Positions 2,154 to 36,308 of a DNA stretch of 64,000 bases are shown one piece after another (the first letter of the stretch is position 1; the number at the start of each line of letters is the position of its first letter). The notes under the pieces were generated by a model, which was given only the letters and a program-made list of their open reading frames with translations, was not told the origin of the DNA and did no database searches. The position numbers were made by a program, and so were the translations under genes. The DNA comes from a virus (Duplodnaviria; Caudoviricetes): IMG/VR virus record IMGVR_UViG_3300029288_000080, positions 32,001 through 96,000 of that record. One strand, 5' to 3'.

Positions 2154-3290
2154 ATGTATTTAACAGAAGTTCAAGACGTCTTCGACGTCAACAAGTACCT
2201 GTGGGGCCTGGCCCACCCAGTTGACCCGGTTGCCGTGGCGCAGCAGTATGATCTGGATCGTGCTGCTCTGGTGGCCCAGGCGCTCCGTGGCCGTAAGTCG
2301 GATACTGCGCCCAGGTCTAGTGCCGACGACGTAACCCATGACGTCATCCACGATGTTGTATTTTGGCGGGATTTTTGCCATGCTCCCGGGTTCCGTCAGC
2401 TGGTCACGCCGTGCCGCTGTACTAACCTTGACCCAGCGGTTGCTCCGTGTGCCGAGCCTACGGATATCCCCGACGGCATCACTACTCTGGTTCGCCACCA
2501 CAATGGCATCCCGCACGTCATCAAGATTCACTATCCTGTGCTCACGTGCCAAGACGGCGTAGCCACGTTGCATTGTCGTGACTGCGGTGTCGAGGTGACC
2601 GCTTCATCCGCAATCGAGGCGGTATGTCGGTGGAACCGCGAGACCATCGCGGTGGTTCCTGAAGACGACCAGATTACCGCGTATGTACCTAAGCCCGTGG
2701 GGCCTTCTCCCGAAGATGTCGTGGCGCTCCAGGCCGTCAAAGCAGAGCGCCGACTGCATAAAGACAAAATCAGACCGGCACAGGACAAAGCCCGCAGTAT
2801 CGTCCAGCACCTTCTTGCCCACCATCGACTACCAGACAGGAGTGCAGCCACAATCCTGGTGTTGTATCGTGAAAATGCCGTGGTGTACCTTGTGACAACC
2901 TCCGTGAGGAATGGGGACTCGCGTGACTTCTATGTCGGTGAGTGGCGCGGGGCAAAACGTGATTGCGGGGTTTTTGATCGTTATACGGACCCTGCCGCGT
3001 TGGCTCAGTGGGCTGACCAACTTGCCGCGACTCTGCAGGGTCATCAAGCAGTCCTATACTACCACCTGGACGCCGTGAAAAAGAACCAGGGGTGGTACGG
3101 CACCGAAGCAGTTAGGTGCGACGCCGGTTGGTTCGGTCCCATGGACCTGACCACCGTGATCGCCCAGGGGGCCATCCCCCAGGAACCCAAGTTCAACTTT
3201 TTGCTGCCCCGTGACCATCCTGGTCACCCGGATTTCGTCCAGACAGCACCGTCTGTTGACCATGAGGATACCGATGCCCCTTCACTTTGA
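2154..3290 (+). CDS. hypothetical protein with Lar-like Zn-finger (paralogue A)
   Basis: PCRC...CRDC...AIEAVCRWN pattern resembles the Lar restriction-alleviation Zn ribbon; RBS GAGGA before ATG 2154. Confidence 0.6.
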   Translation: MYLTEVQDVFDVNKYLWGLAHPVDPVAVAQQYDLDRAALVAQALRGRKSDTAPRSSADDVTHDVIHDVVFWRDFCHAPGFRQLVTPCRCTNLDPAVAPCAEPTDIPDGITTLVRHHNGIPHVIKIHYPVLTCQDGVATLHCRDCGVEVTASSAIEAVCRWNRETIAVVPEDDQITAYVPKPVGPSPEDVVALQAVKAERRLHKDKIRPAQDKARSIVQHLLAHHRLPDRSAATILVLYRENAVVYLVTTSVRNGDSRDFYVGEWRGAKRDCGVFDRYTDPAALAQWADQLAATLQGHQAVLYYHLDAVKKNQGWYGTEAVRCDAGWFGPMDLTTVIAQGAIPQEPKFNFLLPRDHPGHPDFVQTAPSVDHEDTDAPSL

Positions 3291-4468
3291 ACATGAGACA
3301 CAACAGCCGGACGCCAACGCCCGTGCCCGGTTGAATATTTGGTTACGTTGGGCCGCTACCGCGCCAGAGAAAATTGTCCAGCAGTGCATGTACGAGGTGA
3401 CACAGTGGTGGTGTCATGGAGATCCCCAGGAGAGTGCCCAGGCCAAGGAAGTGGAGTTTCTGACCAGATTGCGCGCAACAGTAGGGAGCGACGCCCTCCT
3501 CCACGTAGACTTGGCCGCGTACGCAGAACCTAAAGACGTGTTGGACGACCTAGCTTTTTGGCGGTTTTTCTGTGCCCAGCCTGGTTTCCACCAGATTGTT
3601 TGGCCTTGCAGGTGCACCAACAGGCCAGCAGGTAGTTCTGCCGAGGTGCCGACTCCACAGTACCCTAGTTTTGCTCCGGGTGATTCCGTGGTTTTGGCTT
3701 GCCCAAAGTGTTTCGTCAGTGTGGAGTCCGCCACTCCCCTGGGGGGCGATTTGTCGGTGGAATCATGAAACCAAGAAAGCGGCCGAGATTGCAGCGAAGC
3801 TACAGGAGGACAGCGGCGGGTACGGGCCCAGCCCTACGCCGGGAGAACCGTCCCCCGAGGGTGCAGCGCGACTTGAGGCCGTCAGGGCAGAGCGTCAGGC
3901 TACCCGTAGCACTCGTGGCCGCGCCCTGTATGATCGCCTTGCCGGCATCGTTAACTACCTGATGGACTACTGGAAAATCGTGCGACGAGACGGCCAGGTC
4001 GTCACGGTGTTGTATAAGGAAGACCGGGTTCCTTATCTGATCACCCGACAGGTTGACGCCAGGACCGGTACCGCCACGTACGCGGCCAGGTTGGCCAGGG
4101 GTGCAGAACTACTGTGTCTTCCCGGTGCATTAGACCATTTGTTTGTGGGGAAGCAGAAACCCGACCCTGCTGTCCAGCCAGAGGTGGTTAAGCACCAGAT
4201 CACACATCTCATTAATGAAAATGCGATTTTGCACGTACTGGACCACCATGTTGTGACGGGGTTGCTCAACCAAGAAACCCTTCCAGACACCGGTTGGACT
4301 GACCCGGTTGATTTGGCCGTCGCGATGGCAGCCGGGAAAATCCCGAAGGAACCGCCGTTTGCGGCCTCTGGGTCCCAACAGACAGTATCCCAGCAGACTC
4401 CGATCATTCAAATGAACCAGGACCAGGAAGGCCAAGAAATTAAGCAGTTTGCCGATAGCATCTTATAA
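3274..4468 (+). pseudogene. Frameshifted paralogue B of 2154..3290 (or assembly indel)
   Basis: ORFs 3211..3768 and 3572..4468 join across a G6 run at ~3741-3746 to give PCRC...CPKC...GAICRWN; shares FWRxFCxxPGF with paralogue A. Confidence 0.65.
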
Positions 4469-15224: not shown

Positions 15225-15335
15225 CCCCCTTCTCCCGTCGTAACCGGCTGGTTCTAGCTGGTCCCCATCCCCGTAGCCTCGGCCCACCACGTTAATATTT
15301 AATGGAAGGACCCACAGTGGTTCTGGTGTACCCCC

Positions 15336-16601: not shown

Positions 16602-16890
16602 CGCACGTCAAAACTTTTTAGACACCCTGGATTCAGACCAAGACATCGATCTTGGCGATGAAGTCACGACCTCGGGGATCACGATCGAGGATGACGCGGG
16701 CGAACGGTGCATCACGGCCGTGATCGCCCAGTTCGAGGAGGAAGGTGACCCGGTTCGCGCGGCGTTTCTCGAGGCCATGCGGGCCACGGTCCTGGAAGCC
16801 CGAAATACCGCGATGCTGGCGAGAGCTGCCTGCAAGGTCTTGGCTGAAAAGCGTCAGCGTCGCCAACGGCATGGGTCCCATCCTCGATGA
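16591..16890 (+). CDS. hypothetical protein upstream of terminase
   Basis: Overlaps terminase start (ATGA). Confidence 0.55.
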   Translation: MATDARQNFLDTLDSDQDIDLGDEVTTSGITIEDDAGERCITAVIAQFEEEGDPVRAAFLEAMRATVLEARNTAMLARAACKVLAEKRQRRQRHGSHPR

Positions 16891-19800
16891 AACGACGCCG
16901 TGCTATTGACCTGGACGACCTCACGGTTGCACCAGGCCCTACTGCTAGTCCAGAACCTGTTGCCACGCCGGACCAGGACTCCTTTGACCAGGATGTCGTC
17001 AACGCCTTGCCCACCAAGGTACAGGACGATATTGATTTCGGCGAGGAAATCAGAGACGACTCTGGCCTGCCTGATCCGGTCGCGATGGTCCGGCAGGCCA
17101 TCGCGGCTGACCTGGATTCCTCGGTGTTCTCTGGTCAGCAGTTCCCGGAAGCACCGAACTGCGTGGAATGGTGCCGCGGGCATCAGTGGCTCAACTACGA
17201 GACCGATCTGTTCGCCCGGCAGATCCAAGTGCTGGTGAAGTTTTTCGAGGACGCCTGTTATTTCTGCAGCGACGTGGAATACATCCACGACGCCCGGGTA
17301 GACGACTCACCCGCCAATGCCCTTTCCCACTACAGTTTATTGCAACGTGGTGTCTGCCCCAACTGCAAGCGAAACCGTACCGAAATCCTTACTGACTGGA
17401 TCAAGGACCCACGGTATGGCAAGTTTAACAGGTGGGACCCCTGCGTGGAGCCTCGACCGGTTCCGCCCAACGAGCTGGTTGGCATCTGGGGCCAGCGGTC
17501 AGGGAAATCGATCACAACCGCGTCATTCATCTGGACCTACATCCTCCACCGATTGCTCGCGATGCCGAATCCGTCCAGGTACTACCGACTCGCGACCAAC
17601 GGGGTCCTGCAGGCTTCGTTTGTTTCGCCGACCCGTGGCCAAGGAAAGGAAAACTTGTGGGATCCTTTCCTGAACGCTTTTGACGCTTCCCCGTGGTTCA
17701 AGCAGGTGGTCCAGTATCTCAAGCAGGAGTCCAAGCGGTTGGGGCTCATGCTGTACCACCGGCAGCAGACCTTTTTGGTTTTCCCTGGCAAACGTTTGGC
17801 TGCACATGTCCAGGCAGCAAACAACGTGACGCTCCGTGGGGCTACGAGAGTATTTTGCCTACCTGGCAACACCCTGGTGAACACTGACCATGGGCTGCTT
17901 TCGCTACGACAAGGTGACGACCTACTGGACAGCAAGGTTTACTTGGGTGGTCATCTGCATGATGTGGTAGGCCACACTAAGGTAGGCAAAAAGCAGGTCA
18001 TGCGGTTGGGGTTGCGGTGGGGCTACTCTTTGGAGTCCACCCCCGAGCATCGCGTGCGTGTGCTGAATCCTGACCTTACGGTGGTGTGGAAGCGCGCCGG
18101 AGAAATAAATCTCGGTGATTACGTGGCGGTGGCGTTGGGTGCAAAGTTCCCAGATCATCTTCCCCTGACGTACGTGCCCAAGCGTGCTCCGAAGCGCATT
18201 TTGCGTGCCTACGAGTACATCGACCAGCACAAGGATCTGTTCTACGCCAAGGATTTGCAGGCATACGCGGGTGTGAAGCATATTTATTCCATAACCAAGA
18301 AACTGATGCGACGTGGGGTGATCAGGAAAGAGTTTATTAAGGGCGGGGAAAGAAACTCGGGTTGCCGTTTTATGGCGACCGAGACCTTCAACCTAGCGGA
18401 ACTCAGTCGGGAACTTCTGAATCATAAGTTCAAGGATCGGGATAACGCTGTGTTCCCCAGCGAAATGACCGAGGACATGGGCTACCTACTGGGGTACTAT
18501 GTTTCGGAAGGATCTTTTGCCGAGAACGCTATTGAGTTTACGTTCACCAACACAGACATGCAGGTCATGAACCATTTCGTGGCATGCTACACTCGCGTGT
18601 TCGGGGTTATTCCACGTATCACACAGTTCATGCCGTCCAAGGGCAAGAAAATGGGGTACAAGGCCAGCGTGGCCTATGCGGTCATTAAAGATTTTCTGCG
18701 CTATGTTGGTATGGCCCCCAGTACGGCCCCAACCAAATCTGTGCCGTGGGCTATCTTGCAGGCACCTAGGCGGGTGGTATTGGCATTTTTGTCCGCTTAC
18801 ATTGAGGGAGATGGTTGTTCCAGCGGTGGCGTCATAAGAATGGCGTCCTGCAGTAAAAAGTTGCTACAGCAAATCCAGTTGCTTCTACTGAACTTGAAAA
18901 TAGTCAGTTCTTTAACAAAAAGCCGAAAGCGTAAACCTGGACGTAGCCGCGAGCACAATGCGCTGTACCAGTTGGGGTTAAACAAGTTAGCCTCTACTCA
19001 ACTGGCTAAACATTTGTCTTGCGTGACCAAATGCAAAAACGTGAGCACTGTTTTTTACAATATGCGCCACGACGCGTACAAAATACCATTTCTGCACCCA
19101 TATTTCGGAAACGTTATGTATGGCAAAAGCAGCGTGTACTATTCTGCGTATGTGCGTAGTAGTCTTAATAAGGTGTCTGAAAATCATGCTTTGCGCTGCC
19201 TGGAGATGGAAGACCCTGAACTGTGTGGGCGAGCCAAAGCACTGGTGGACACTGGTGTTGTATGGATTCCAGTGACCGAGATTAAAAATCTTGGGATTAA
19301 GACAGTGTACGACCTTGCTGTGGATAGCGCGGACCATGCGTTTGTTGGTAGTGGCGTTGTGGTCCATAACTCGGCGTTGGACGAACTCGGTCATTTTTCG
19401 TTCGCGAGCAACGGGACCAAGCGGGCGTCGATCCACGACGGCACAGAAGTCTTCACCTCCCTGACCAACTCGCTCCGGACCATCAGGTCGGCGGCGGAAA
19501 GTCGCCGGGATCAACTCGGCGATTACCATGCCCTCGATGGCTACATGGTGAACGTGTCGAGCCCGTTGGACATCGGGGATCCGATTGAGCAGCGGGCTGC
19601 CATTGCCGATAAGTCGTTCCGGATGTACTTCACTAGGTACCCGACCTGGGAAGTTAACCCCAAGGAAAATGAAAACCTGATCCGTGAGGAATTCGCTGGT
19701 TCCCCCGTGACGTTTACGCGAGACTTTGGTGCGCAACCACAGCGGGCCGCCAACCCATTTATCCAGGATGAGAAAATCGTTGATGTCACCACGGTGGAAA

Positions 19801-20621
19801 AGTCACCTCACGTTTTTGACGTGACCCTCTTGACGGAACCGACCGAGACAGATGTGGCACTCCTGCGGGCCAAACTGACCAGGATCGTCAACGACAAGTC
19901 AATGCCCCGTTGTATCACGGTGGACAACGGAGAGCGGAACAACAGTTTCGCCCTGTGTGTCTCGCGCTATTACCCCGAACAGGACGGCATGCTGGTCGAA
20001 GAACTCGTGGAGTTGGCCCCGACTAAAACGGCATCGGTTGACCTGGCCTGGTGTTATAACGAACTGGTGGTCCCGCTGGTTAAGCAACTTCACTGCGTCC
20101 ATGTCGCGTACGACCGCTGGGAATCTGGCTACGCCGTCGCGGACCTCCGGACCAACTACAAGATCGACGCCCAACGGTACAGTCTCAAGTGGAAAGACTT
20201 TGAGATGTTCCGCGACGACCTTTGTGGCATGCGGGTTTTCATGGCCAAGCCGGAGGTTCCGTGGAAACAGGTCTTGACGGTCCCGTTGGCCGACAGAGCC
20301 CAGTGGCCCAGGGCCCATGCCCAAGCTCAACTCCTGACCGTGAGCGAACGAGCTAAGACGCTGTCAAAACCTACCAACGGCAATGACGACCTGTTCCGTA
20401 CGGTCGTGCTGGCCCACCATTTCATTTCCAAGTACCGCGAAGCCTACCGACACAACCAGCGGGTCGAGGGCAACAGGGCTGCTGACCGTCCCGTTGCCCT
20501 GTTCTTCGGTCGGTCAAGCCACGGGAGCGGGGCTGGTGGTGCTGGGCAACGTGGTCGTGGTCCTGGTGGTAGAAATCGCGGGCGCGGTCAGGGTGCCCCC
20601 ATGGGCCCCGGGGCCCTATAA
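16887..20621 (+). CDS. terL: Terminase large subunit with intein
   Basis: Walker A GQRSGKS, LRG, Walker B ALDE, coupling VSSP, nuclease ITVDNG...NDDL; sits upstream of the portal. Confidence 0.88.
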   Translation: MKRRRAIDLDDLTVAPGPTASPEPVATPDQDSFDQDVVNALPTKVQDDIDFGEEIRDDSGLPDPVAMVRQAIAADLDSSVFSGQQFPEAPNCVEWCRGHQWLNYETDLFARQIQVLVKFFEDACYFCSDVEYIHDARVDDSPANALSHYSLLQRGVCPNCKRNRTEILTDWIKDPRYGKFNRWDPCVEPRPVPPNELVGIWGQRSGKSITTASFIWTYILHRLLAMPNPSRYYRLATNGVLQASFVSPTRGQGKENLWDPFLNAFDASPWFKQVVQYLKQESKRLGLMLYHRQQTFLVFPGKRLAAHVQAANNVTLRGATRVFCLPGNTLVNTDHGLLSLRQGDDLLDSKVYLGGHLHDVVGHTKVGKKQVMRLGLRWGYSLESTPEHRVRVLNPDLTVVWKRAGEINLGDYVAVALGAKFPDHLPLTYVPKRAPKRILRAYEYIDQHKDLFYAKDLQAYAGVKHIYSITKKLMRRGVIRKEFIKGGERNSGCRFMATETFNLAELSRELLNHKFKDRDNAVFPSEMTEDMGYLLGYYVSEGSFAENAIEFTFTNTDMQVMNHFVACYTRVFGVIPRITQFMPSKGKKMGYKASVAYAVIKDFLRYVGMAPSTAPTKSVPWAILQAPRRVVLAFLSAYIEGDGCSSGGVIRMASCSKKLLQQIQLLLLNLKIVSSLTKSRKRKPGRSREHNALYQLGLNKLASTQLAKHLSCVTKCKNVSTVFYNMRHDAYKIPFLHPYFGNVMYGKSSVYYSAYVRSSLNKVSENHALRCLEMEDPELCGRAKALVDTGVVWIPVTEIKNLGIKTVYDLAVDSADHAFVGSGVVVHNSALDELGHFSFASNGTKRASIHDGTEVFTSLTNSLRTIRSAAESRRDQLGDYHALDGYMVNVSSPLDIGDPIEQRAAIADKSFRMYFTRYPTWEVNPKENENLIREEFAGSPVTFTRDFGAQPQRAANPFIQDEKIVDVTTVEKSPHVFDVTLLTEPTETDVALLRAKLTRIVNDKSMPRCITVDNGERNNSFALCVSRYYPEQDGMLVEELVELAPTKTASVDLAWCYNELVVPLVKQLHCVHVAYDRWESGYAVADLRTNYKIDAQRYSLKWKDFEMFRDDLCGMRVFMAKPEVPWKQVLTVPLADRAQWPRAHAQAQLLTVSERAKTLSKPTNGNDDLFRTVVLAHHFISKYREAYRHNQRVEGNRAADRPVALFFGRSSHGSGAGGAGQRGRGPGGRNRGRGQGAPMGPGAL
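17856..19370 (+). mobile_element. Intein (505 aa) with LAGLIDADG homing endonuclease
   Basis: Starts CLPGNTLV, block B TPEH, LGYYVSEGS and LSAYIEGDG motifs, ends VYDL...VVHN followed by Ser; lower GC than the extein. Confidence 0.92.
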
Positions 20622-31866: not shown

Positions 31867-32754
31867 ATGCCATTTGATCTTGGGATTGACCCTGGTGCGG
31901 ATCCTGGCCTTGACCCTGTGGTTGATGAACCCGAGGTCAAGACCCCGGCGAAAAACTGGAAAGCCCATGAGTCGGAAATCATCCGGGCGATCCGGGATCA
32001 ACTCGGACATCCTGGCGACGACCAGCGGGGCGAAGTTTCGCTCGTGGGCCCCAAGGTAGTCTCGACCTACGGGTCCAGTGACCTGGGCTACCAAATCAAG
32101 GGTTCTTTCCGGGCTAAGTTTCCGGTTCAGGGTCCAGGGCCCTACTGGTTCGTGGCGAACATTTCTCCTGACGATACCCTGATGTTTCCGGTGATCACGA
32201 CTGCTAATGATGGCAACCCCATCCGCGAGGCCCAGGTGAAACAGGTCAAAACTGCCGCCACGGATGTTCCGCACCTTTTTGCCGCGACGGTCAAGCCGCT
32301 GGAAAATCTCTACCGCTTCTGGACCGCGGTGCTCAAAGAAGCGAAATCCCACGAGTCGGACTCCAGCACGTCGGTCTGTATTTCCAGCGAGCCCGGCGAG
32401 TACTCGATGTTTTCGGCCGACTGGATGGAGCGGGGGCTTCAGCAGACCATCGAGATGTTCCACGGGCTCTTGACCTTGTGGAAAAGCAGCACCGCGGCCG
32501 TCAAGGCCATGCCGGTAGCCTATGCGTACTACAACCAGCTCGCGGGGATCCGTGAAGCCGTGGTCGACTTGTCCGAGCATGCCCTGGACCACCAGGTGGG
32601 CTTTTTCTGTATTGACCAGCGGGGTGTCCGGGCACTCTTGACCTTGATCACGCAGGCCCGCCGCGACGCCATGGACTTGGCCAAATATTTGCCGTTGAAA
32701 ATGGCTCCTCGACGTAAGCAAGCTGCTGTTTCACCGTGGCGCAGGCTTTCCTGA
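31867..32754 (+). CDS. hypothetical protein (VKTAA linker)
   Basis: ORF in operon. Confidence 0.65.
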   Translation: MPFDLGIDPGADPGLDPVVDEPEVKTPAKNWKAHESEIIRAIRDQLGHPGDDQRGEVSLVGPKVVSTYGSSDLGYQIKGSFRAKFPVQGPGPYWFVANISPDDTLMFPVITTANDGNPIREAQVKQVKTAATDVPHLFAATVKPLENLYRFWTAVLKEAKSHESDSSTSVCISSEPGEYSMFSADWMERGLQQTIEMFHGLLTLWKSSTAAVKAMPVAYAYYNQLAGIREAVVDLSEHALDHQVGFFCIDQRGVRALLTLITQARRDAMDLAKYLPLKMAPRRKQAAVSPWRRLS

Positions 32755-32972
32755 TGGACCATCCAGTAAATCCCAATGCGGAGTCCAACGCGGCCCTGAT
32801 GCTGGCGGCGGTCCGACAAATCATGGCGAGGGTCACGACCGTTGAGGATCAAATATTGGTCCTTAGCACTGATTTAGAACAACATGGGGTAACCTGCGAG
32901 CAGTTGCGGGTCGCGATTGAGATGTTGCGACAGGACGTCACGGCCTTGAAGGCGGCGATTCCGCGAGATTAG
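32754..32972 (+). CDS. small coiled-coil protein
   Basis: TGATG coupling. Confidence 0.5.
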   Translation: MDHPVNPNAESNAALMLAAVRQIMARVTTVEDQILVLSTDLEQHGVTCEQLRVAIEMLRQDVTALKAAIPRD

Positions 32973-33087
32973 CACGTTACTTTATAGTGGTATGGAAATC
33001 CATGGTGATTTCCATGTGGAGCAATCATGGGCCTCTACCAGCAGTCCGCCAAGCACCTTAATCTTTAGTGGGTCTACTATTGTTATC

Positions 33088-34335
33088 ATGCTGATTAAAC
33101 GCGCGCACAAGGTGGAGCTGAGCCCAAACAAGGTGCAGGAACTGGCCCTGGCTAAGTCTGCCGGCGTTGCCCGTTTTGCGTACAACTATGGTCTTGAACT
33201 TCACGCACGGCACTACAAAGAAACCGGAAAACATCTTTCTGCTGTAAGTATGCATAAAATATTATGTGCAGAGAAAAAAGACAAGTTTCCATGGATGTAC
33301 GAGGTGTCAAAATGTGCTCCACAGGAAGCGTTCTACAATGTGGAGGCCGCGTTCATAAATTTTTTCAAAAAGCGAAGTGCACATCCTAAATTTAAGAAAA
33401 AGGGGCGTAGTAAAGATTCTTTCACTCTCGACAATTCTGTTTTCAACACAAAAAGTATTAGAGGCCGAGGCGTACACCTGCCTAAAATAGGCACTGTTCG
33501 GTGTAAAGAAATTCTTAGTATTGAAGGCAGGATTCTGTCCGCCACAGTATCTAAGGATGCAGACCGATGGTTTATCTCAGTTATGCAAGAAGTCGAGATT
33601 GATTTAAGAGAAGAAGACAAACCCAAAGGGAATCCCATTGGGATTGACCTTGGGATTAAAACGCTAGTCACGACGTCCGACGGTGAGGAAAAACAGGAAT
33701 TTGTTCTTCCGTATTATCTGGACACAGAAGAAAAGAAAATAAAGAGAGCACAGAAGAGGCTTTCAAAGAAGGCAAAGAAGTCTAAAAACTGGTTCAAGCA
33801 GGGCATCAGGGTAGCACGACTCTACCGTAAGCTGCGGAACAAGCGTACTGATTTTATTCATAAAACGACGACACAACTGGCAAAAACCAAGTCAGTCATC
33901 GTCATGGAAGACCTTAACGTTAAAGGAATGGTGAAGAATCATTGTTTGGCCAAATCTATTAGCAACGCAGCTTTTGGTGAAATAAAGCGCCAACTTGAGT
34001 ACAAAACTATTTGGTATGGGTCGGAGTTGATCATGGTGTCAAGGTGGTTCCCAAGCAGTAAAATGTGCTCAGCATGCGGCTTCATCAAGAAAGATTTGAG
34101 TTTGAGCGAAAGAACTTGGATCTGCCCTGATTGCCACACCGAGCATGAACGCGATTTTAATGCTGCGACTAATATCTTGGTTGAAGGGCTAAAAATCAAT
34201 ACCGTGAGCCACACGGGAATTAACGCTTGTGGAGATGGGAGTTCATTTGTTGACTCGTCAACAAATCAGCCTGTCGTTGAAACAAGAAGGGGCCAATCCT
34301 CTATTCTTCAAAACAATGGAGGAGTATCCTCATGA
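33088..34335 (+). CDS. tnpB: TnpB RNA-guided endonuclease (IS605/IS607 OrfB type)
   Basis: ARFAYNYGL HTH, PKFKKK, GIDLGIK, VMEDLNV, FPSSKMCSACG...CPDC, RDFNAA; AT-rich relative to flanks. Confidence 0.92.
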   Translation: MLIKRAHKVELSPNKVQELALAKSAGVARFAYNYGLELHARHYKETGKHLSAVSMHKILCAEKKDKFPWMYEVSKCAPQEAFYNVEAAFINFFKKRSAHPKFKKKGRSKDSFTLDNSVFNTKSIRGRGVHLPKIGTVRCKEILSIEGRILSATVSKDADRWFISVMQEVEIDLREEDKPKGNPIGIDLGIKTLVTTSDGEEKQEFVLPYYLDTEEKKIKRAQKRLSKKAKKSKNWFKQGIRVARLYRKLRNKRTDFIHKTTTQLAKTKSVIVMEDLNVKGMVKNHCLAKSISNAAFGEIKRQLEYKTIWYGSELIMVSRWFPSSKMCSACGFIKKDLSLSERTWICPDCHTEHERDFNAATNILVEGLKINTVSHTGINACGDGSSFVDSSTNQPVVETRRGQSSILQNNGGVSS

Positions 34336-34730
34336 GCGGCGATTGGACCCGAGTTTGGGGCGGTGGAAGTAGTTGCGGGGGATCCTGCGACCAATACATC
34401 TGCATCCCGCGGTCCGCTGTGTCCAATCCACCGGAATCCACCACGTCGATCCTGGACGGTCTCCCGACCAACATCACGACCATCGGGGCCGCCATGTCGG
34501 TCTGGATGGAGCGGTTGCGGCGTCGCCTTGACGCCAAGAGTTGTCTCGTGACCGTCACGACCCTCAACACCACGTATGTCGCGACACTGCCCGGCGCGAC
34601 CGTGACCATGACGATCTCTGGCGGATATTTTCCGCTGTCGGTTCAGTACACCCGGGCCCAGTCCACTGGGTCCGCAACCTTTGACAATTTTCCCGCCGCG
34701 CTCGACTGGTTGGTCGCGCGTTTGGCATGA
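34332..34730 (+). CDS. hypothetical protein, probably the 3' part of a gene interrupted by the tnpB insert
   Basis: ATG lies at the end of the AT-rich insert with RBS GGAGG; can be joined in frame with 32992..33042. Confidence 0.55.
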   Translation: MSGDWTRVWGGGSSCGGSCDQYICIPRSAVSNPPESTTSILDGLPTNITTIGAAMSVWMERLRRRLDAKSCLVTVTTLNTTYVATLPGATVTMTISGGYFPLSVQYTRAQSTGSATFDNFPAALDWLVARLA

Positions 34731-34796
34731 CGACCGCGTCTCACCTTTCAACTATACCAACGCGGCGTTCACGATCACATCAGGAGGATTTTGACC

Positions 34797-36308
34797 ATGC
34801 GTAAAGTTCCAGTTGGTAAGAATGTCGCTCGCCGGCCTGTAGCGCCCCAGTCCACCGTGGCTGGCCGCCTCGCAGCTCTCCGGGCCCGTAGCCGTCGGGT
34901 CGCCGAGGGTTTCGAGAAGTTCACCGACGAGCCCGAGGTTGACCCCCGGGACGTGGAGTTCCTCGACGAGGAGCTTCCCGAGGGCGATATGGGTGATCTC
35001 GGTGACCTTGGCGATCTTGGTGACCTGGGCGACCTCGGGGATTTCGAGCCCTTGGATTCTGAGGAAGGCGGCGACGAGGGTGGCTGCGGTTGCCCGGTGG
35101 GCCAGCACTCCGAGTGCGTAGACGACGAGGCCGGTGAGGCTGACGAGAAGGATGACGACAAGGAGGAAAAGGACGACGACAAGGAAGACAAGAAGGAGAA
35201 AAAGGAAAAGGACGACGAGGACAAGGATGACGACAAGGAGGACGACGTGAAGGAAGACAAGAAGGAGAAGGACGCGTTGGTAGAGGAGCGGCTGGCCCGT
35301 TTCAAGGCGATCCAGAAGACCCGTCAGGCCGAGGCCTTCAAGGCTGCCCTGCCGGCCAAGAAGCCCGTTGCTGCCCCGGTCAAGACTGCGGAACCCGTTG
35401 TCCCCGTGGCTGCCCCCGCTCCGATCAAGACGGCCGAACCCGTTGTGGAGCCCGCAGCCGTGGTGGCACCTGCTGCCCCGGAGGCCGAGGAGTCCAAGAT
35501 TTCGTGGAGCCCCCTGGTCACCGAGTCCATCCTGGCGGACCTCAAGGATCCCGAGGTTGACCTGACCCTCAAGTCGGCTTCGTCCAACCCGTACTATGTG
35601 CTCTGGATCAACGAGAAGCCCGTGGGTGAGCTTCATGAGGCCGACCTGGACCTCGACGATGCCGGCAAGGACACGTTCCGGTCGGCCCAGTACGTCAGTG
35701 GCGTCCGGGGCGTGATCCAGCAGTTCGGTGCCGTGGAGGCTCTCCGGGACCTCAAGCTCCGGTACTACGCTGCCAGCACCCAGGAGAACGACGCGATCAA
35801 GCGGGCCAAGACCGAGATCGCCCAGGATGCCGATGCTGCGTTCCGCAAGCGTGTCGCCACCATGGTGAACGATATGTTCTCGACCATGAACCTGGCGTTC
35901 CAGGCGTCGCAGAAAAATTTCATTTTGCAAAACGCCCTCAAGGACGCGGTCGTCGAGAATTTCCGGTCCGCTGGGGTGCCCGAGGGTGTCGCGATCGACC
36001 TGATCGAGGACGCCTTCACGAAGGCGGGGCCCGAGTATTTCAAGGCGATGCTCAACAAGGCCCAGGAGTGGCTGGGCTACGAGCCCGAGGCACTTCGGCA
36101 GATCGAGGCCGAGGTTACCGCCATGCAGTACCGGCATCCCCGTGACCAGTTCGGTAGCCAGATCAACGACGAGATCCCTGCCGTGACGGTTCCCCGGGCC
36201 GCCAACGTGGCCCGGGTGGCCCAGACGGTTGTCGAGGATGACCTCGACACCATGATGGCGGCGGCCCGTCGAGTGGGTCGCGCCACCGTGAATCGTCCCC
36301 GCCAGTAA
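34797..36308 (+). CDS. Prohead core/scaffold-like protein
   Basis: Basic N-terminus, (GDL)n repeat, D/E/K-rich tract, KTAE motifs; upstream of protease; codon bias like the MCP. Confidence 0.55.
   Translation: MRKVPVGKNVARRPVAPQSTVAGRLAALRARSRRVAEGFEKFTDEPEVDPRDVEFLDEELPEGDMGDLGDLGDLGDLGDLGDFEPLDSEEGGDEGGCGCPVGQHSECVDDEAGEADEKDDDKEEKDDDKEDKKEKKEKDDEDKDDDKEDDVKEDKKEKDALVEERLARFKAIQKTRQAEAFKAALPAKKPVAAPVKTAEPVVPVAAPAPIKTAEPVVEPAAVVAPAAPEAEESKISWSPLVTESILADLKDPEVDLTLKSASSNPYYVLWINEKPVGELHEADLDLDDAGKDTFRSAQYVSGVRGVIQQFGAVEALRDLKLRYYAASTQENDAIKRAKTEIAQDADAAFRKRVATMVNDMFSTMNLAFQASQKNFILQNALKDAVVENFRSAGVPEGVAIDLIEDAFTKAGPEYFKAMLNKAQEWLGYEPEALRQIEAEVTAMQYRHPRDQFGSQINDEIPAVTVPRAANVARVAQTVVEDDLDTMMAAARRVGRATVNRPRQ
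34983..35045 (+). repeat. 9-bp tandem repeat encoding GD(M/L/F) x7
   Basis: ggcgatatg ggtgatctc ggtgacctt ggcgatctt ggtgacctg ggcgacctc ggggatttc. Confidence 0.85.

Follow-up and report, generated by a model that had tools for sequence, protein, structure and literature searches.

The 64,000-nt stretch of DNA analyzed here (hereafter the window; bases 32001–96000 of the 177.6-kb IMG/VR virus record IMGVR_UViG_3300029288_000080, which represents a large uncultured phage and is ~70% complete) contains an IS605-type element that encodes the nuclease TnpB and interrupts a gene of the head-morphogenesis module. In our reading, to which we assign a probability of roughly 0.7, the element is TnpB-only, the interrupted gene is restarted from an ATG that forms part of the element's right end, and the element would spread in a guide-directed manner.

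A Precise Insertion at the Second Codon of a Head-Module Gene

All positions refer to the window unless they carry the prefix G000, which denotes the genome. The following features are needed first:

32973–32990, + strand: promoter-like motif of the interrupted gene, CACGTTACTTTATAGTGG; exact match to the phage motif described below, equally placed in the empty alleles L006 and L038
32992–33015, + strand: hairpin of the 5′ untranslated region (5′UTR), ATGGAAATC / GATTTCCAT; perfect 9-bp inverted repeat (32992–33000 with 33007–33015)
33016–33068, + strand: orphaned Shine–Dalgarno (SD) sequence GTGGAG (33016–33021) and start codon ATG 33027; both have aligned counterparts in the empty alleles
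33031–34338 (approximate), + strand: inserted element, 1308 bp; delimited by empty-site comparison, tblastx-collinear flanks and a shift in GC content
34332–34730, + strand: interrupted gene as it can be read today (132 aa, MSGDWTRVW...); its product shares 85% identity with the 131-aa proteins P0001 and P0002

The insert lies among genes for terminase, portal, head-maturation protease, a virion protein and the major head protein, all on the same strand. Its site is filled in the window and empty in two related phage contigs: L006, a 105-kb Logan contig that is collinear with the window on both sides (tblastx), and L038, a contig of 631 nt. Such an empty allele in related phages is what the earlier, sequence-only reading of this DNA had suggested looking for. 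In both contigs the promoter motif CACGTTAAT(A/C)TTTAGTGG is followed by ~35 nt of 5′UTR, an SD (GGGAG or GTGGAG) and ATG GCx GAT TGG AC.., which encodes the protein start MADWTRVW; a stem related to the 5′UTR hairpin of the window is also found in L006. The window retains the original SD and ATG 33027, followed by GGC and then by element sequence, the other end of which reads ...CCTCATGAGCG and is succeeded by GC GAT TGG ACC. Comparison with the empty alleles places the junctions at ATG G|GC... and ...AGCG|GC GAT, and the insert therefore measures 1308 bp, its boundary being ambiguous by at most 3 nt (GGC occurs at 33030–33032 and at 34338–34340). Apart from this ambiguity of 0–3 nt, there is no target duplication. 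The insertion point is four bases into the coding sequence that starts at ATG 33027, and this orphaned ATG now opens a 13-codon open reading frame (ORF) with the translation MGLYQQSAKHLNL, which ends at TAG 33066–33068. An AT-rich insert of ~1.3 kb had been recognized before and is real, encoding a TnpB of 415 aa; its borders, then placed at ~33043–34337, are replaced by 33031–34338 on the basis of the empty alleles. The GC content of the insert is 0.438, compared to 0.547 and 0.602 in its flanks. As judged from these junctions, a TnpB-only element of the IS605 type was inserted precisely into codon 2 of a conserved head-module gene; its low GC content, which has not drifted toward that of the host, suggests that it arrived recently.

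The interrupted gene shows no sign of decay. Its ratio of nonsynonymous to synonymous substitution rates (dN/dS) is 0.12–0.16, and five lineage-specific residue changes were counted in the window protein versus 12 and 12 in two relatives. Both P0001 and P0002 begin with MADWTRVW, and ~20 further, more distant family members of 104–138 aa, retrieved in a profile search of 1.84 billion representatives, align from residue 1. The N-terminal motif M-x-x-W-x-[RYK]-[VA]-[WF] is present in 10/10 distant homologues read (126–138 aa). The family (34332–34730, P0124–P0154) is small and unannotated. Its proteins of 126–138 aa have in common the N-terminal motif M-x-x-W-x-R-V-W, which looks invariant, as well as a segment rich in Cys and the motif (A/V)(L/I)DWLV at the C-terminus; some of the family's matches are repeated domains within proteins of 400–1650 aa. 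An AlphaFold model of the protein reached a predicted local distance difference test score (pLDDT) of 59.8, too poor for a structure search.

An Intact TnpB without a Transposase in Cis

33088–34335, + strand: tnpB, 415 aa; its start aligns with the N-termini of homologues

TnpB matches the Pfam domains PF12323 (HTH_OrfB_IS605), PF01385 (OrfB_IS605) and PF07282 (Cas12f1-like_TNB) above their cut-offs, and its nearest solved natural relative is ISDra2 TnpB (8H1J/8BF8, E = 7.5e-67). The RuvC residues D187, E274 and D356 align with the catalytic positions of ISDra2 TnpB and are all intact, in agreement with what had been read from the sequence before, and the zinc finger CxxC...CxxC (C327, C330, C346, C349) aligns with the ISDra2 metal positions. 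For codons 1–365, comparison with four relatives yielded proportions of nonsynonymous (pN) and synonymous differences (pS) of 0.15–0.22 and 0.64–0.76, respectively; dN/dS is ~0.1. By these measures, the nuclease is intact and under purifying selection. TldR proteins are nuclease-dead TnpB repressors that have lost the RuvC catalytic residues; because these residues are intact here, the protein is not a repressor of this type.

No transposase was found in the element or in the 64-kb window. The earlier claim to this effect holds for this scope and has to be qualified for the genome, in which the sole match to PF01797 (Y1 TnpA) is located at G000:125070–125420, outside the window and ~60 kb away. 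A search for a serine recombinase (PF00239) gave no match in the genome. Three other TnpB genes are present, all outside the window (G000:113266–114318 on the minus strand, 125435–126517 and 176464–177549 on the plus strand), and their products are 42%, 32% and 33% identical to the window TnpB, respectively. The one at 125435 directly succeeds the Y1 TnpA gene, and the pair constitutes a complete IS200/IS605 element in the phage. Mobilization of the window element in trans by this TnpA is unlikely, since the accompanying TnpB is unrelated (32%) and the right end is different. By gene content and homology, the element is a TnpB-only (IS1341-like) derivative of IS200/IS605 that is ISDra2-like and has its own guide-RNA gene.

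A second potential start of tnpB was also noted: ATG 32992 is in frame with tnpB without an intervening stop, and the resulting 447-aa ORF is reported by gene callers as P0004. This ATG is located 1 nt past the promoter motif of the interrupted gene and 3 nt past its TATAGT. A similar geometry is seen at the fourth TnpB copy of the genome (G000:176443–176466), where the motif CACGTTATACTATAGTGC abuts the ATG with no leader; if this motif is the promoter of that copy, transcription starts inside the motif and the mRNA is nearly leaderless. An N-terminally extended TnpB could possibly be made from ATG 32992, perhaps from a near-leaderless transcript; against this, the ATG is absent from L006 and L038 and lies in a hairpin arm.

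A Probable Replacement Start Codon in the Right End

34318–34334, + strand: GGAGGAG, 7-nt spacer and ATG 34332; GGAGGAG is the 3′ arm of the terminal hairpin, and the ATG overlaps the tnpB stop (ATGA)

How the interrupted gene may have survived becomes apparent from the right end of the element. In the metagenomic contigs L031, L032/L033 and L034, which encode close relatives of the window TnpB, the right ends finish with ...GAGTATAGTTTTATGAACG and are followed by unrelated flanks; L035 reads ...TTTTATGCACA there, and the window finishes with ...GAGTATCCTCATGAGCG. The right-end ATG of the relatives stands in the context ..TTTTATGAACG, with AAATGAGTATAGTTTTATGAACG at the position of GGAGGAG–ATG. 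Since the relatives have the same right-end ATG, it is an ancestral feature of the right end; in them it opens ORFs of just 12–41 codons. In the window, the seven element bases ATGAGCG and the remaining GC of codon 2 form a frame that yields MSGDWTRVW..., which has one residue more than the ancestral M(G/A)DWTRVW..., and the interrupted gene thus appears, from this arrangement, to be translated from the element's ATG 34332. The sequence-only reading had proposed an SD and ATG carried by the element: GGAGGAG-N7-ATG does open the ORF 34332–34730, but it was not built as a rescue, being a conserved right-end motif of the family.

Between the scaffold of the predicted guide RNA (see below) and the right end lies a terminal hairpin of 9 bp (34297–34305 with 34315–34323), which is analogous to the TTACCTG/CAGGTAA hairpin of the relatives and has a different sequence. 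Moreover, the TGA stop codon of the relatives' tnpB is TGG in the window copy, and tnpB therefore runs on to the TGA that overlaps the new ATG (ATGA). This overlap suggests that the restart is probably coupled to termination of tnpB translation, which would also open the hairpin.

Predicted Guide RNA, Target and Target-Adjacent Motif

34196–34338, + strand: predicted omegaRNA scaffold; extends from within the 3′ part of tnpB to the right end
34202–34206/34212–34216, 34226–34230/34282–34286, 34234–34239/34270–34275 and 34245–34254/34257–34266, + strand: conserved scaffold stems
34339–34354, + strand: predicted guide GCGATTGGACCCGAGT, covering codons 3–8 of the interrupted gene; right-end boundary from relatives and empty sites

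Codons 371–395 of tnpB are 85–100% identical to those of four relatives at third positions, compared to 0.2–0.7 elsewhere in the gene, so that the 3′ 100 nt are constrained at the nucleotide level, as an omegaRNA scaffold would be. The consensus fold of the scaffold comprises 26 pairs with 98.9% of cells paired, and seven of these pairs show compensatory changes versus 2.1 in shuffles (0/500) and at most one in slid controls; the segment 34196–34296 is nearly identical to that of the relatives. An Rfam scan of 32000–36000 with E up to 1 returned no match, group I introns and known guide-RNA families included, and exact-pattern scans of viral and metagenome contigs for the conserved guide-RNA core gave 0 matches.

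In the ISDra2-type architecture, the guide corresponds to the flank directly 3′ of the right end. Applied to the window, this predicts GCGATTGGACCCGAGT as the guide, within one base of the guide that had been proposed from the sequence alone. The predicted target would be the rejoined site ...ATCATGG|GCGATTGG..., and the filled allele would be protected because left-end sequence follows the flank on the side of the target-adjacent motif (TAM). The 5′ flank in the window ends with TCATGG; in L031, L032 and L034, for which boundaries are approximate, three-way similarity seems to start just after ..CATG or ..AATG. These flanks hint at a TAM ending in ATG.

A Phage Promoter-Like Motif in the Left End

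33054–33071, + strand: promoter-like motif in the left end of the element, CACCTTAATCTTTAGTGG; differs from the phage motif at one base, with the tnpB ATG 16 nt downstream

The observation that a promoter motif of the phage recurs within the insert proved sound: The motif CACGTTAnnnTnTAGTGG is found at 32973 and, with one mismatch, at 33054 before tnpB, and with up to two mismatches there are six occurrences in the window, compared to 0.18 expected. At up to one mismatch, 11 occurrences were counted in the genome, always in the orientation of the local genes. The motif typically lies 25–90 nt upstream of an ATG, is often directly followed by a stem-loop and has no −35 box. Copies in the window lie upstream of the head gene with the insert, of a gene for a virion structural protein, of the major head protein region and of a gene shortly before the terminase. 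Besides 32973 and 33054, copies are located at 15288, 42358, 43357 and 55419 of the window and at G000 14898(−), 16826(−), 108028 and 132788. A fair reading of this distribution is that CACGTTAnnnTnTAGTGG is a phage-specific late-type promoter, the temporal class of which we infer. Neither a T7-like RNA polymerase nor a sigma-70 region 2 was found in the ~70%-complete record, in which the RNA polymerase control was also without a match.

Relatives Occupy Different Loci in Related Phages

The closest TnpBs, 69–78% identical to that of the window, are encoded on the metagenomic contigs L031–L035, and a more distant one (60%) on L037; the GC content of these contigs is 44–50% and 53%, respectively. 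The flanks of L031 and L034 encode homologues (62–86% at the amino acid level, tblastx) of genes from other parts of this phage's genome, and the flank of L037 is likewise homologous to other loci of this phage, whereas L032/L033 gave only a weak match of 37 aa and L035 none. According to this flank comparison, members of the element family are therefore found at different loci, and at least three related phages harbor them; those of L031 and L034 are AT-richer than the phage of the window. The relatives stem from SRR32119647, ERZ1292629, ERZ27247837 and JGI 3300037067. The same tblastx comparison revealed no empty sites for the relatives' insertions. In a scan of IMG/VR with TnpB, identity across most of the protein did not exceed 43% (50% for one partial segment), and the matches were uninformative for the element ends.

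The left ends of L031, L032 and L034 carry CACCTTAyACTnTAGTnG, aligned with the window motif at 33054, and the motif CACCTTAAAnTnTAGTAG occurs upstream of an ordinary gene in L031 and in L032/L033. The left-end motif therefore belongs to the element lineage and fits the promoter type of its phages. At that position, a good sigma-70 promoter (TTGACA, 17 nt, TACTAT or TAATAT) takes the place of the motif in the more distant L036 and L037. In the window, the left end still has the donor-type CACCTTA, and the TTGACA box is lost. This left end spans 57 nt, compared to ~95 nt of left-end similarity upstream of tnpB among the three closest relatives, and is devoid of their CTTGACA/TGTCAAG inverted repeat. 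No convincing left-end hairpin was found in the window element; a right-end hairpin is present, with a sequence unlike that of the relatives. Neither the genome nor the retrieved loci contained a paralog from which the divergent right-end tail or the left end could stem.

Two further observations concern the arrangement of these elements. L032 and L034 each contain two different TnpB genes within ~3 kb (127–1389 and 2263–3510; 1430–2608 and 3001–4260), which makes these contigs unusually rich in TnpB cassettes. In L036, the TnpB of which is 60% identical, 14 nt separate the right end of the element from the ATG of the gene that follows (4233–4250), and the tnpB ORF reads into the flank; this element is another insertion right at a gene start.

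Proposed Mechanism and Alternative Explanations

In the proposed mechanism, transcription would initiate at the tandem motifs at 32973 and 33054 and run through tnpB into the interrupted gene. Translation of this gene would restart at ATG 34332, seven bases past GGAGGAG and coupled to tnpB, whereby MSGDW... would replace M(G/A)DW.... Equipped with a guide from the 3′ flank, TnpB would cleave insertion-free copies in sister or co-infecting genomes, and repair from the filled copy would copy the element; the cassette would thereby persist and spread like other TnpB elements. Judged from these features, homing into co-infecting phages is plausible.

Several observations weigh against this mechanism. 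The GGAGG sequence is hidden in the terminal hairpin in free RNA, and no clear SD precedes the tnpB ATG 33088. The last ~42 nt of the scaffold are unlike those of the relatives, with another terminal hairpin and a shorter tail, and the guide RNA may therefore be impaired. Additionally, the guide mismatches the known empty alleles, at 3/16 positions in L006 (1, 11, 12) and at 4/16 in L038 (1, 2, 11, 12), and phages with these alleles would probably be cut poorly. The low GC content suggests a recent insertion, and the intact interrupted gene is no proof of continued expression; because the insert looks recent, this intactness is weak evidence for expression. Finally, no phage other than this one turned up with the site filled.

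In two alternatives, the gene is restored when the insert is removed, and both are close to untenable. According to the sequence-only reading, the gene is split, with a 17-codon first part starting at ATG 32992 (MEIHGDFHVEQSWASTS), a second part downstream and AGC at both junctions, such that removal of 33043–34337 restores it. Although ATG 32992 is present and AGC is found close to either end, ATG is joined straight to GCx GAT TGG in the empty alleles L006 and L038, which thereby identify ATG 33027, in a frame different from that of 32992, as the ancestral start. The region around 32992 is 5′UTR there, with no ATG or in-frame ORF at the equivalent position in L006 or L038, and in the window this ATG lies in a hairpin arm. 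Moreover, the right-end AGCG belongs to the element, like AACG in the relatives, and the ten distant homologues of 126–138 aa begin at the M-x-x-W motif. An MEIHGDF-like N-terminus, chosen beforehand as the test of the split gene, is missing from all homologues read, and MEIHGDFH turns out to be the translated 5′UTR hairpin. The frame might also be restored at the level of the mRNA, from which the element would be removed by self-splicing as in IStrons: The insert lies inside a coding sequence and 1308 nt is a multiple of three. Against this hardly credible scenario stand the Rfam scan of 32000–36000, which returned neither a group I intron nor another family at E up to 1, the absence of a serine recombinase match in the genome and the ISDra2-like, IS605-type nature of TnpB.

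The other two alternatives accept the insertion and differ in the role of the element. It could be a stranded relic that arrived recently from an AT-richer relative, is immobile, has a dead guide RNA and is tolerated as its right-end ATG keeps the head gene alive. The lack of a transposase is in line with this explanation, as are the shortened left end without TTGACA box and CTTGACA/TGTCAAG repeat, the right-end hairpin and tail that differ from those of the relatives, and a GC content not drifted toward the host's; the only TnpA of the genome adjoins a TnpB that is just 32% identical, no other filled site was found, and the guide-RNA pattern scans remained without a match. We nevertheless consider it rather unlikely: TnpB is full length with all catalytic residues, the dN/dS of the family is ~0.1, the scaffold segment 34196–34296 is nearly identical to the relatives', and neither TnpA nor intact end hairpins are needed for homing. 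Alternatively, the phage could keep the nuclease as a domesticated weapon against rivals with an uninterrupted allele, or as a means to control the head gene. The phage promoter motif in the left end would suit this role, as would the overlap of the guide with the start of a conserved virion-module gene; furthermore, SD and ATG of the head gene lie inside the scaffold, where binding or processing by TnpB could compete with translation. However, members of the family are located at different loci of related phages, as is typical of a mobile element, the intact catalytic residues do not fit a TldR-type repressor, and the known rival alleles mismatch the guide. Competitive exclusion and homing are, in addition, indistinguishable from sequence alone, and altogether we regard domestication as improbable.

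Beyond the TnpB-only element that restarts the gene from its right-end ATG and would spread by its guide, one may tentatively combine a TnpB lineage of this phage clade, the clade's promoter, homing upon co-infection, a target ending in ATG, start rescue and competition between guide and translation. This broader combination is possible, at rather less than even odds. If it were true, the cassettes would have exchanged a sigma-70 left-end promoter for the late-type promoter of the clade and would pass between co-infecting phages by RNA-guided, transposase-independent homing. Start codons would then be natural landing sites, and the conserved right-end ATG would let the hit gene survive. Guide-RNA production and head-gene translation would be set against each other on one transcript, a translation-level analogue of the IStron conflict.

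Genomic Setting

The terminase large-subunit ORF of the module (16887–20621, 1244 aa) shows homology only across residues 829–1217; its N-terminal 800 residues are something else, with a weak match to phrog_9666. A blastn search against GenBank phages produced only short matches of ~72% within the neighboring ORF 34791–36308 and none to the insert or the 131-aa gene. A scan of IMG/VR with the protein of the interrupted gene gave no match.

Comparison with Known Systems

TnpB is the ancestor of Cas12, and its usual role is described as keeping the transposon in place after excision by TnpA. The window element shares with ISDra2 TnpB/omegaRNA (PDB 8H1J, 8BF8, 8EXA) the domain order, the D-E-D residues and the zinc finger, as well as, by prediction, a structured RNA that overlaps the 3′ end of tnpB, reaches the right end and takes its guide from the 3′ flank. 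It differs from ISDra2 in the lack of a TnpA in cis, the phage-type promoter motif in the left end, the 5′ flank (...TCATGG and not TTGAT), its location in a phage and a right end that supplies a gene start. A tnpB without a transposase and with a guide RNA is also what characterizes the IS1341 group (tnpB-only) of IS200/IS605.

As summarized in a review of OMEGA systems, IS605 relies on TnpB rather than TnpA to spread through a population of plasmids, and the concept of "transposon non-restorative homing" lists co-infecting phages as possible targets (PMC13565253). The same review treats homing from phage to phage as theoretical; here, a natural pair of filled and empty alleles exists in phages, known from their sequences. 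A transposase-less phage TnpB with both alleles bears on this largely theoretical RNA-guided homing between co-infecting viruses (PMC13565253); with its intact nuclease, its predicted guide and the empty site as reconstructed here, it lends itself to direct tests.

That TnpB can act as a homing nuclease has been established for elements of the IS605 and IS607 types (PMC10690162). Zedaveinyte et al. (PMC10690162) describe IStrons, combinations of IS607/IS605 with group I introns, in which, as proposed for the window, an RNA feature of the element lowers the cost to the host gene and one stretch of RNA serves both as guide RNA and for host-gene expression. Unlike in IStrons, there is no intron here, and the cost would be lowered at the level of translation, by the right-end ATG and SD, and not by splicing. 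With the free-standing and intron-borne genes for homing endonucleases such as Seg, Mob and I-TevI in T4-like phages, the element has in common a selfish nuclease gene that resides in a late or structural region and is present in one relative and absent from another, and the expected action on co-infecting genomes (a concept found in PMC13565253); in contrast to these, its recognition is predicted to be RNA-guided and its fold is RuvC-like and not GIY-YIG, HNH or LAGLIDADG. In the cyanophage A-1(L), tnpB is present in one phage, absent from close relatives and transcribed during infection (bioRxiv 10.64898/2026.02.14.705889). The A-1(L) tnpB is identical to IS copies of the host, whereas the nearest relatives of the window element are all on metagenomic contigs, several of them from related phages, and the window element carries the promoter motif of its phage clade.

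This copy indicates how an element can land in an apparently important gene without destroying it: It brings phage-type transcription signals, and a pre-existing start codon at its right end would replace the displaced one. It is not a new class of system; both phage-borne tnpB and the concept of transposase-independent homing are known. What distinguishes it from these known systems is a right-end ATG exapted, as it appears, as the start of a gene, a promoter motif of the phage clade in the left end, and signals of a head gene that overlap the predicted scaffold of the guide RNA.

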